From Verrucomicrobiota bacterium (GTDB lineage: Bacteria > Verrucomicrobiota > Verrucomicrobiia > Chthoniobacterales > JAFAMB01), in NCBI GenBank assembly GCA_019236035.1, contig JAFAJU010000092.1:1-30277 (forward strand): a DNA stretch of 30,277 nucleotides. The letters are read 5' to 3'. The notes under the pieces were generated by a model. That model was not told the DNA's origin. It did not search any database and was given only the letters and a program-made list of their open reading frames with translations. Shown in pieces: positions 16,961 through 19,414 of this stretch (its first letter is position 1; every line of letters begins with the position of its first letter). Made by a program: the position numbers and the translations under genes.

Positions 16961-17719
16961 ATGTTCAAACGCATCGGCAAACTCTTCCGTGGCTTTCTCG
17001 GTCTTTTCGTCACCGGTTTAGAACGCCAGAACCCCGAAGCATTGCTCCAAGCAGAAAAGGAAACCTTGCGCACCCAGATCGCGCGGTACAATCAAGGCTT
17101 GGCCGCTCATGCGGGCCTCTGCGAAAATCTCATGGCCCAGGTAAAAAAGCTGGAGGTAGATGAACGCGAACTTCGAGCCAAAGCCGCCGCTAACCTTCGG
17201 GTGGGCAATCGCGACGCCGCCGCTCAATACGCCTTACGCTTGCAAACCGTCACGCGCGAACTGGAGCAGAACCGGGTCCAACTGACTCAGGCCGAAACGA
17301 CCTATAAGGAGTTGATTCGTGCCCGCGACGTCTCCGTCAGGGCTGCGCAGTCTAAAATCGAAACTCTCAAAGCGGACCTCGACGATCTGAAGGTCAAGAA
17401 GGCAGCCGCGGAGCTTTCCGAAATGGCGGGCGGCATGATTTCTCAGATTGGCGGAGCCGGTGACACGCTTGATCGACTCCAAAGTATGATCGAGGAGGAA
17501 CGCATCAAGGCTGCCGGTCGGGTTCGAGTCGCACGCGACTCTCTCAATGCGGGCGACTTTGCCGTGAAGGAGGCCGAACAGAAAATGCTGGCCGACCAAG
17601 CCCTGGCCGATTTCGCCGCGAAAGAAGGAATTGCCCTCGAACCGGAGCCTGCTTCGCCCGATTCCAGCACGACCGCCACAGGGACGTCCTCGCGTACGAT
17701 GGGGCCTCAGTCCGCCTGA
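16961..17719 (+). CDS. PspA/IM30 (ESCRT-III superfamily) coiled-coil protein
   Basis: N-terminal amphipathic helix MFKRIGKLFRGFLGLFV, 'ERQNPEALL' (cf. PspA EDP motif), long helical hairpin with 'AAANLRVGNRDAAAQYALR', 252 aa. Confidence 0.8.
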   Translation: MFKRIGKLFRGFLGLFVTGLERQNPEALLQAEKETLRTQIARYNQGLAAHAGLCENLMAQVKKLEVDERELRAKAAANLRVGNRDAAAQYALRLQTVTRELEQNRVQLTQAETTYKELIRARDVSVRAAQSKIETLKADLDDLKVKKAAAELSEMAGGMISQIGGAGDTLDRLQSMIEEERIKAAGRVRVARDSLNAGDFAVKEAEQKMLADQALADFAAKEGIALEPEPASPDSSTTATGTSSRTMGPQSA

Positions 17720-17740
17720 CCATACCGAGAAATCCTCCTC

Positions 17741-19414
17741 ATGAGCGAGGTCGCTCAAAACCGTAACGCGCTGCCTTCCTGGGCCACGGAGATGATCTCG
17801 CTTTACGAGAGTCGATCCGTGAATCAATTCATCCTCCATGGCAATGTGAACGACCGGTTTTATTTGCCGCTCGGCAACAAGGCTTCGCTTGGCGCTATTC
17901 GTGATTTCCTACTCCGTGTTCTCCTTCCCGGTTTTGATTTGATTTTGAGCTACGACCTGGGCAACGGCATTCGCGTCGAAAAAGGTGGCGATATTTTTTC
18001 CCAATGGACGGGCGCGAAGGAGTCCCTTGAATTGCCCCGGCAACCGCGGCCTGCTATCGAACTCCTCACGCGCTTTTTTCGCTACGTGGCAAATCTCACG
18101 CGGCTAGGCAAACCCGAGTGGCAGGTGGCCTGCTACGTTCGCGCCTGCCATCTGGTCGCTCCGGCGCTGCCCGGTGCGCTCAACTATGATCTCAACGCGC
18201 TCGCCCTGCTCTTGCGGGATTGGGCGACGGACGAGCTCCTGGTCCAGCATCCGCTGGTGACCTGTCTGATTGCCGATAACCTCAACGACCTGCATCCGCT
18301 TATTGTGCAAAACCCTCGCGTCGGCAAGATCCAGGTGCCGCAACCCGCAGTGCACGAACTTGAGGCGGCCTTGGCACTGATCAAGCCGGCCTATCCTAAA
18401 GCCCTCGCCGAATTCAAGGGCGAACCATCCACCCTGGCCGATCAACTGGTCGGCGCCTCGATCAATTCGGTCGAAGAACTCCTCAAGCTTAAGGAGCACG
18501 GGAACGAGGCTATCCAACCGCGTGATCTGGTGGTTTTAAAGAAATCCCTCGTCGAAAAAGATTGTGGCGACCTGATCGAGTTTATTAGTTCCAAACGAAC
18601 GCTCGATGATGTTCACGGCCAGGACAAGCTTAAAGACTGGCTTCGTCAGGATGTCGCCCTTTGGCGGGAATCGCACTTTCAGGCATTGCCGATGGGCTAC
18701 CTGGTTTGTGGCCCGGTAGGAACTGGTAAGACTTTCCTGGTCGAGTGTCTCGCCGGTGAAGCAGGTATTCCGGTAGTTAAGGTCAAAAACTTCCGCGACA
18801 AATGGGTCGGCACCACCGAAGGAAATCTCGAGAAAATCTTCCGGCTGCTGCATGCCCTGCAGCGCTGTTTTGTTTTTATCGACGAAGCGGATCAGGCGCT
18901 CGGCAAGCGGGATTCCGGTTCGAACGACGCCGGACTCTCTGGCCGGGTCTATTCGATGATCGCCGCGGAAATGAGCGACGGCGACAACCGAGGTAAAATC
19001 ATTTGGGTACTGGCTTCCAGCCGCCCCGATCTAATTGAAGTTGACCTCAAACGACCTGGCCGCGTCGACGTCAAGATCCCCGTCTTCCCTTCCTCCACGC
19101 CGGCGGAAGGATTCGAGCTGCTTCGCGCGCTATGCGAACGGCGCGGCGCGCCGCTCGATAAAAACAGGTTTGGTTCAATCGAAAAACTTGTGCCCGACTG
19201 GCTCACACCCGGAGCAGCAGAGACCTTGGCGGTGAAGACCCTGCGTACCGTTCTCACGCAAAAACTGAGTCCTGACGAGGCTCTCGTCCAAAGTCTGACC
19301 AACTATCAACCACCTGTTTCCCTCGAAGTGATGGAGGTGCAAATCCGCCTCGCAGTTAACGAAGCTTCGGATTGGGATTTCATTCCGCCAGCGTTCCGCA
19401 GCTATCGCGGGTAG
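17741..19414 (+). CDS. AAA+ ATPase (classical AAA clade) with a ~280-aa N-terminal region
   Basis: Walker A GPVGTGKT, pore loop RDKWVGTTEGNLEKIF, Walker B FVFIDEAD, SRH SSRPDLIEVDLKRPGRVD. Confidence 0.92.
   Translation: MSEVAQNRNALPSWATEMISLYESRSVNQFILHGNVNDRFYLPLGNKASLGAIRDFLLRVLLPGFDLILSYDLGNGIRVEKGGDIFSQWTGAKESLELPRQPRPAIELLTRFFRYVANLTRLGKPEWQVACYVRACHLVAPALPGALNYDLNALALLLRDWATDELLVQHPLVTCLIADNLNDLHPLIVQNPRVGKIQVPQPAVHELEAALALIKPAYPKALAEFKGEPSTLADQLVGASINSVEELLKLKEHGNEAIQPRDLVVLKKSLVEKDCGDLIEFISSKRTLDDVHGQDKLKDWLRQDVALWRESHFQALPMGYLVCGPVGTGKTFLVECLAGEAGIPVVKVKNFRDKWVGTTEGNLEKIFRLLHALQRCFVFIDEADQALGKRDSGSNDAGLSGRVYSMIAAEMSDGDNRGKIIWVLASSRPDLIEVDLKRPGRVDVKIPVFPSSTPAEGFELLRALCERRGAPLDKNRFGSIEKLVPDWLTPGAAETLAVKTLRTVLTQKLSPDEALVQSLTNYQPPVSLEVMEVQIRLAVNEASDWDFIPPAFRSYRG

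Follow-up and report, generated by a model that had tools for sequence, protein, structure and literature searches.

ESCRT-III and Vps4 systems are restricted to the archaea and the eukaryotes (Makarova et al. 2024), and it is Vps4 that unfolds the subunits of ESCRT-III (cited in PMC11746142). Reviews dating from 2024 and 2025 describe the bacterial ESCRT-III relatives as being without a Vps4-like ATPase and treat the disassembly of PspA polymers as an open question (PMC7619361, PMC10936438, and PMC11746142); according to the 2025 review, such an ATPase appears to be absent in bacteria (PMC7619361). The turnover of PspA, it has been suggested, may depend on chaperones or on PspF (Junglas et al. 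2024), and the chaperone cpHsc70-1 binds the C-terminal tail of VIPP1, a PspA-family polymer protein, and drives its disassembly (PMC12798727). A candidate gene pair is also in print. From comparative genomics, a paper by Ravi et al. (2024, mSystems, PMC11237479) predicts a dyad of PspA with Inactive-Classical-AAA plus Classical-AAA modules (exemplars AEY64321.1/AEY64320.1 and the OGG56892.1 operon) and gives ATP-dependent membrane remodeling as its predicted function. Here, we describe a pair of this kind, a divergent pspA gene followed by a gene for a tandem AAA ATPase, in a 30,277-nucleotide (nt) stretch of a Verrucomicrobiota genome (assembly GCA_019236035.1, contig JAFAJU010000092.1, positions 1 to 30,277; referred to below as the window).

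The locus is a minimal two-gene operon for a divergent PspA and a dedicated tandem-AAA ATPase, carried by a genome of 3.27 Mb that is 75% complete. Two open reading frames lie on the plus strand: pspA at 16961-17719 (252 amino acids), assigned to the PspA/IM30 proteins of the ESCRT-III superfamily from Pfam PF04012, a structure model, and fold matches, and the ATPase gene at 17741-19414 (557 amino acids), assigned from its model, Foldseek, Pfam, and NCBIfam. These coordinates confirm the two-gene unit with a 21-nt gap that had been described in an earlier reading of the letters (the original prediction), in which the ATPase was proposed to recycle PspA polymers. The spacer itself (17720-17740, plus strand) contains no Shine-Dalgarno-like AGGAGG. 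As in the Ravi dyad, PspA stands beside an ATPase whose N-terminal AAA module is inactive and whose C-terminal classical AAA module is active, a match that we made by architecture and operon layout, and relatives of the window show the long operon that appears in that paper. The window differs in being minimal, in having the order PspA then AAA, and in the deletion of a gene for a transmembrane (TM) coiled-coil protein. It is a further, minimal-form member of the published dyad. A pairing of this kind had been predicted in print beforehand, so that the locus by itself is no discovery, and the suspicion voiced in the original prediction that the pair might be catalogued but uncharacterized proved correct (PMC11237479). 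The accessible text of Ravi et al. does not mention the tail motif, the loss of the motif together with the ATPase, the persistence of both genes in unlinked genomes, or the similarity to Ycf46 that we describe below.

The association of the two genes is widely conserved. In a locus scan that used one genome per species, we recovered an ATPase orthologue at 80 loci, with identities of 53-94% (94% for the closest relative). These loci span at least seven phyla, with representatives in the Verrucomicrobiota, Acidobacteriota, Armatimonadota, Abditibacteriota, Planctomycetota, Desulfobacterota, and Gammaproteobacteria. A PspA orthologue lies upstream of the ATPase gene on the same strand at 70 of the 80 loci. 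At six of the remaining 10, the contig stops within about 1 kb, which leaves four that are genuinely unlinked (L052, L057, L067, and L068), each with at least 4.2 kb of flank without PspA. Even so, every one of these four genomes encodes a PspA of the subfamily elsewhere, at about 390 bits. The same holds for genome G081, the sole carrier of the ATPase orthologue among 300 high-quality Verrucomicrobiota genomes, where a subfamily PspA is again found elsewhere in the genome at about 390 bits.

We obtained a similar picture from a sample of 301 Acidobacteriota genomes, in which an ATPase orthologue was counted at E ≤ 1e-99. The orthologue is present in 18 of the 301 genomes, and all 18 also encode the subfamily PspA, which occurs in only 20 genomes overall; in 14 of the 18, both genes lie on one contig within 10 kb. 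The two genomes with PspA alone are G381, whose contig ends 4.5 kb past pspA, and G494, which is a real exception. The two genes have thus been inherited and kept together across phyla, and PspA and the ATPase very probably work together. Co-occurrence of both orthologues across genomes had been named in the original prediction as a way to check the pairing, and adjacency at 70 of 80 loci, joint presence in 18 of 18 Acidobacteriota, and the retention of both genes in the unlinked genomes all speak for it. Among the high-quality Verrucomicrobiota, PspA_IM30 was detected in 18 of 300 genomes and the ATPase orthologue in 1 of 300, and both proteins are 55-70% identical across phyla. The combination of a sparse distribution with this cross-phylum identity suggests that the module moves horizontally as a unit.

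Residues 2-220 of the upstream protein match Pfam PspA_IM30 (PF04012) over profile positions 3-216 of 220, with a score of 36.3 bits that exceeds the cut-off of 33.9 by a small margin (E = 5.9e-9). The window pspA is the sole PF04012 match found in a whole-genome search of this 75%-complete genome. No PspA or Vipp1 was matched among PDB sequences, whether the search was made with the protein alone or with a profile of 22 orthologous sequences, which places the protein on a divergent branch of the family; for the same reason, family membership was tested by Pfam and by fold. The AlphaFold model (predicted local distance difference test [pLDDT], 71) contains helices at residues 2-23, 25-81, 84-138, 142-162, 167-193, and 197-222, followed by a disordered tail (223-252), and it shows the ESCRT-III-type layout of a hairpin (25-81 and 84-138) followed by alpha4 and alpha5 (142-162 and 167-193). 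Its top fold matches are Vipp1 (7o3w and 6zvr), PspA (7abk and 9hzx), CdvB, Asgard ESCRT-IIIB, LiaH, and CHMP2, with match probabilities of 0.92-1.00 for PspA/Vipp1 and 0.80-0.98 for CdvB/ESCRT-IIIB and with weak E-values (5e-4 to 4e-1). On this evidence, we accept that the protein belongs to the PspA/ESCRT-III superfamily, and polymer formation is predicted. Two further features that had been read from the letters in the original prediction are present in the model. The amphipathic N-terminal helix corresponds to alpha0 (2-23), which is conserved among the PspA orthologues and in which the hydrophobic moment over the first 18 residues reaches 0.59, the maximum for the protein (mean, 0.24; standard deviation, 0.12), and the disordered tail rich in S, T, and P is evident from both the model and the composition of residues 223-252.

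The downstream protein is a two-module AAA ATPase. Residues 321-447 match Pfam AAA (E = 6.8e-24), and the second module (D2) is an intact classical AAA module that extends over approximately residues 285-470, after which come a helical lid and helices at the C terminus. All of its motifs are encoded on the plus strand. They comprise Walker A (GPVGTGKT, residues 324-331, at 18710-18733), pore loop 1 (KWVG, residues 354-357, at 18800-18811), which aligns with MWYG of Cdc48 D2, Walker B (VFIDEADQ, residues 378-385, at 18872-18895, with DE at 381-382 and DEAD at 381-384), and the arginine fingers R438 and R441 in the second region of homology (RPGR, at 19052-19063), which align with RPGR of Cdc48 D2. 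Across 41 relatives reaching down to 27% identity, no variation occurs at K330, G357, D381, E382, R438, and R441 and almost none at G324, P325, and D384. Within the pore loop, W355 is invariant and V356 nearly invariant only in the alignment of 16 close orthologues, whereas G357 is invariant in both alignments. The catalytic residues and the substrate-type pore-loop residues are intact in D2, as the original prediction had read them, and as judged from sequence the enzyme is predicted to be active.

The first module (D1, approximately residues 1-275) is of a different kind. The sequence FILHGNVNDRF occupies the position of the P-loop, the P-loop Lys and Thr and the acidic pair of Walker B are gone, and Pfam gave no match in residues 1-300. 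The model of the ATPase is confident (pLDDT, 89.5; predicted template modeling score [pTM], 0.83), and Foldseek aligned it, across about 580 columns, to D1-D2 of AFG2/Drg1, Cdc48, Rix7, NVL, and p97. A helix near the N terminus (residues 11-24) is conserved. Since D1 has the AAA fold without the P-loop and the Walker B acidic pair, it is a degenerate AAA module, and what had been offered in the original prediction as a possibility is borne out by the model and the fold alignment. A language-model atlas search with the N-terminal domain returned unnamed clusters only.

Sequence and fold place the ATPase closest to D2 of Cdc48, AFG2, and NVL and to Ycf46. The NCBIfam scores are 68.3 bits for CDC48 (TIGR01243; cut-off, 802.65), 66.5 bits for FtsH, and 32.2 bits for CdvC (NF041006; cut-off, 650), and no Vps4 chain appears among its 60 best PDB sequence matches. 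The arrangement resembles Vps4/CdvC and ESCRT-III in that the gene for a classical-clade AAA motor lies beside that for a polymer protein of the ESCRT-III superfamily, in the K-W-hydrophobic-G pore loop, and in the disordered tail of the polymer protein with its conserved terminal motif, which is formally akin to MIM motifs. However, the ATPase lacks the MIT domain and the beta-domain of Vps4 and has two AAA modules rather than one, and the polymer protein is of the PspA type and not of the Snf7 type. A pore loop of the aromatic-hydrophobic-Gly type also occurs in Cdc48 D2 and other classical AAA proteins and is thus not diagnostic of Vps4. The label "Vps4-like" in the original prediction is therefore apt as an analogy but fails as a family assignment, given the missing MIT domain and a CdvC model score of 32 bits against a cut-off of 650.

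By sequence and by fold, the two modules together are matched best by Cdc48/p97, AFG2/Drg1, NVL/Rix7, and PEX1/6, which share the motifs of an active D2 and a threading-type pore loop. The window ATPase differs from Cdc48-type proteins in lacking the N-terminal double-psi-barrel, in a D1 without P-loop and Walker B, and in its length of 557 as against 750-1000 amino acids. The best whole-length match among Swiss-Prot models is Ycf46, an uncharacterized AAA protein of cyanobacteria and red-lineage plastids, which aligns over residues 12-542 with a template modeling score of 0.64-0.77 and has a comparable size and two-module layout, but only 16-17% sequence identity. To our knowledge, Ycf46 has not been linked to Vipp1 or PspA, and no such link is apparent from the titles and the first lines of the abstracts of the top-ranked papers that mention Ycf46.

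PspA is already known to be partnered with an AAA+ protein in Proteobacteria, where it regulates PspF (PMC7619361). PspF, however, is a sigma-54 enhancer-binding protein with a helix-turn-helix domain that is inhibited by PspA, whereas the window ATPase belongs to the classical clade and has no DNA-binding domain. PspC (PF04024) was not found in the genome, which is 75% complete, and neither PspB nor the Lia genes (LiaI, LiaF, and LiaRS) were searched for. The contig that carries the locus has no sigma-54 activator; such activators are present only on other contigs. As far as PspC and the sigma-54 activators are concerned, this agrees with the absence of canonical Psp partners noted in the original prediction.

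The PspA orthologues share an element at their C-terminal end. In the window protein, the conserved last helix reads ALADFAAKEGI (residues 214-224; 17600-17632, plus strand). In the orthologue alignment, A214, L215, A216, A219, A220, and G223 are invariant and D217, F218, and E222 are at least 90% conserved. Comparison of the orthologues also identified a C-terminal motif, RTMGP in the window (residues 245-249; 17693-17707, plus strand). The order in orthologous PspAs is the helix ALADFAAxEG[IL], a linker that varies in length and sequence, and then [KR]-x-[MLI]-G-P, which sits 1-18 residues from the C terminus. Of 68 proteins (that of the window and 67 orthologues), 61 have [KR]-x-M-G-P and 3 more have K-x-L-G-P. 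The PspA of L085, whose ATPase is 28% identical, shows the form EKTMQP. All 18 ATPase-linked PspAs examined from Acidobacteriota carry the motif, 16 as [KR]-x-[MLI]-G-P and 2 as variants, and it appears as K-[ED]-[MLI]-G-P in PspAs from the long operons of this phylum (five- and six-gene forms).

By comparison, neither the helix consensus nor the motif is found in the PspAs of G494, G294, and G096, which score 260-370 bits against the subfamily profile. None of these three genomes encodes the ATPase; the G494 contig of 4.06 Mb covers nearly the entire genome, and G294 and G096 belong to one genus. In the PspAs examined, the tail motif goes together with the ATPase; the co-losses are few and come from two lineages, but their direction is the one proposed in the original prediction. 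As the motif is retained even in the two-gene form, no partner other than the ATPase is shared by every operon form, and the motif provides indirect support for the ATPase engaging the PspA tail.

These observations can be assembled into a mechanism. The ATPase would assemble as a hexamer, in which the degenerate D1 ring may serve assembly and docking. It would recognize the C-terminal element of PspA, that is, the helix ALADFAAxEG[IL], the linker, and [KR]-x-[MLI]-G-P, and ATP hydrolysis in D2 would drive the extraction of subunits from rings or rods of PspA, so that the polymer on the inner membrane would be recycled or reshaped. In function, though not by orthology, the ATPase would then be an analogue of Vps4 in its action on ESCRT-III and of cpHsc70-1 in its action on the tail of VIPP1. 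The plastid systems (cpHsc70-1 and HSP70B-CDJ2-CGE1 on VIPP1) resemble this proposal in that an ATP-driven chaperone works on the disordered tail of a PspA-family polymer, but cpHsc70-1 is of the Hsp70 class, which is unrelated to AAA, and it is a general chaperone rather than an operon partner. The synteny and co-occurrence of the two genes, the tail motif, the conserved catalytic and pore-loop residues, and the fold of the window ATPase, which is that of a substrate-threading type II AAA unfoldase, are in favor of the mechanism, as are the precedents of Vps4 and cpHsc70-1 and the matching functional prediction of Ravi et al. (2024), and on balance we lean toward the view that the ATPase remodels or disassembles PspA polymers. 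That it enters PspA by way of the tail motif is possible, and we propose it tentatively. The fullest version holds that it is a dedicated PspA disassemblase that finds its substrate by the C-terminal [KR]-x-[MLI]-G-P, a convergent counterpart of MIT-MIM on a Cdc48/Ycf46-like chassis, and that Ycf46 could by extension be a remodeler of Vipp1/PspA; taken as a whole, we consider it doubtful.

Several points weigh against disassembly by the ATPase. PspA itself has been reported to bind and hydrolyze ATP and, with no partner present, to alter the diameter of its rods (PMC11746142), and literature searches turned up no biochemical, genetic, or other experimental study of any PspA-linked classical AAA ATPase. 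The contact between tail and ATPase is read from co-variation, for which no more than three genomes, of two lineages, are available. The distance matrices of PspA and ATPase are correlated (r = 0.68; Mantel p = 0.001), but this mirror-tree result lends weak support only, because it is confounded by shared species history. Finally, tandem-AAA paralogues at 30-37% identity have the same layout of degenerate D1 and active D2 without PspA nearby, which indicates that the link to PspA belongs to the orthologous clade and not to the fold. Such PspA-free paralogues occur in L082 (Bacteroidia), L083 and L084 (Cognaticolwellia-type), and 14 Acidobacteriota genomes; one of them adjoins rplU-rpmA-obg.

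The paralogues also fit a different division of labor, which we consider unlikely, in which PspA would be an adaptor or regulator. It would sense membrane damage and recruit or release an ATPase that extracts or unfolds damaged membrane proteins, in the manner of Cdc48 or FtsH, or it would hold the ATPase inactive, as Escherichia coli PspA does with PspF. PspA is dispensed with by the distant paralogues, general unfoldases (Cdc48, AFG2, PEX6, and FtsH) are nearest in sequence and fold, the larger operons also encode an SBP-OmpA protein together with an ABC transporter and a 2-TM coiled-coil protein, and regulation of an AAA+ partner by PspA is established for PspF (PMC7619361). The minimal two-gene operon, however, offers no other candidate substrate, no protease or degradation partner is linked to it, and the conserved PspA element lies at the tip of a disordered tail, the typical entry point of a threading motor. 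Regulation of PspF, by comparison, uses the helical body of PspA. The co-occurrence and tail data would also fit if the ATPase were an assembly or loading chaperone, one that maintains PspA as a soluble monomer or delivers it to membranes instead of recycling polymers, and HSP70 systems are reported to control VIPP1 oligomer assembly and dynamics besides disassembly (PMC12798727). We nevertheless judge such a role to be quite improbable, as classical AAA motors with an aromatic pore loop usually disassemble or unfold their substrates. Vps4, katanin, NSF, and Cdc48 are all disassembly or unfolding machines with aromatic pore loops.

The patchy distribution (one orthologue in 300 Verrucomicrobiota) and the high cross-phylum identity could also be those of an anti-phage or abortive-infection device with a PspA-like membrane effector, and PADLOC returned weak IetA matches to the AAA module (E = 1.4e-11). 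However, these matches cover the generic AAA core only (residues 320-435), no nuclease, TIR, protease, or other effector genes are present, and the context is one of housekeeping genes (dnaX-ybaB upstream and tRNA-Asn downstream) with uniform guanine-plus-cytosine (GC) content. We rejected a defense system as the principal interpretation because PADLOC yielded nothing beyond the generic AAA-core matches to IetA, and we regard this role as very improbable. A purely coincidental adjacency without any functional link, for which the 4 unlinked loci among 74 assessable ones might be cited, is hardly credible in view of adjacency in at least seven phyla, co-occurrence in 18 of 18 Acidobacteriota, and the presence of both genes in the unlinked genomes.

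For the reading in which the ATPase remodels or disassembles PspA polymers, the gene pair is a concrete candidate for a PspA-disassembling ATPase. The two-gene form represents a minimal system for reconstitution, the tail motif and the pore loop supply defined mutations, and natural variants exist in which motif and ATPase were lost together. Both genes are also found in cultivable relatives, namely, Akkermansia, where they are unlinked in A. muciniphila, and Verrucomicrobium spinosum, where they are adjacent. If the mechanism is true, ATP-driven recycling of ESCRT-III-type polymers would have arisen at least twice, on different AAA scaffolds.

Several operon forms occur among the relatives of the window. 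A gene for a 2-TM coiled-coil protein of about 256-290 amino acids, identified by alignment, lies directly upstream of the ATPase gene at 26 of the 80 loci (for example, L007:5231-6001, L003:4441-5241, and L070:5129-5962, with 23 other loci) and is divergently oriented at 2 more. In the long form, which is seen in G405, G312, and L085, the order is PspA, SBP-OmpA, ABC permease, ABC ATPase, TM coiled-coil protein, and ATPase; the Armatimonadetes form has a periplasmic binding protein instead. The paper by Ravi et al. calls the TM coiled-coil protein a divergent TM+Snf7 protein. We did not reproduce an assignment of this protein as Snf7 or PspA related, since hhalign against the PspA profile gave a probability of 0.6% and Pfam gave no match, and it has a weak PADLOC match to LeoBC (E = 7e-6). 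In some Verrucomicrobia, the gap between pspA and the ATPase gene is filled by a gene for a different, small multi-TM protein of 110-132 amino acids (L048:5554-5952, L058:5511-5882, and L073:5520-5852).

Comparison with the nearest relative, L002, places the window among these forms. L002 has about 465 extra bases between the two genes, which hold a 60-codon remnant of the TM gene (L002:5822-6004); blastn and tblastn against the window showed that this remnant consists of fused N-terminal and middle segments of the gene. Relative to L002, about 465 nt are deleted from the window at 17720-17740, and this deletion identifies the window as a derived minimal form. With one query, we did not find the TM coiled-coil gene elsewhere in the 75%-complete genome of the window. 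The remnant in L002 and the deletion in the window look like gene decay caught at two stages.

On its 5′ side, pspA is preceded by dnaX (14743-16437) and then ybaB (16441-16743; Pfam YbaB match). recR is the usual gene after dnaX-ybaB, and it is absent from this position at the locus. A repeat search located an inverted repeat between the ybaB stop codon and pspA, with 25-nt arms at 16754-16778 and 16810-16834 that are 96% complementary and separated by 31 nt. The repeat (16754-16834) is likely a boundary of the repetitive extragenic palindromic (REP) or terminator type, in which case pspA and the AAA gene would form a separate transcription unit. A consensus scan revealed no sigma-70-like promoter between the inverted repeat and pspA, and terminator-like sites did not exceed chance level. 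On the 3′ side, the minus strand carries a tRNA-Asn (GTT) gene at 19598-19672, 184 nt past the ATPase stop codon; an open reading frame on the plus strand at 19372-19746, which overlaps this opposite-strand gene, is almost certainly spurious and was discarded. The GC content is uniform across the window. The position of the inverted repeat behind ybaB fits a separate observation made by the author of the original prediction, that of GTAG-type REP elements at gene ends.

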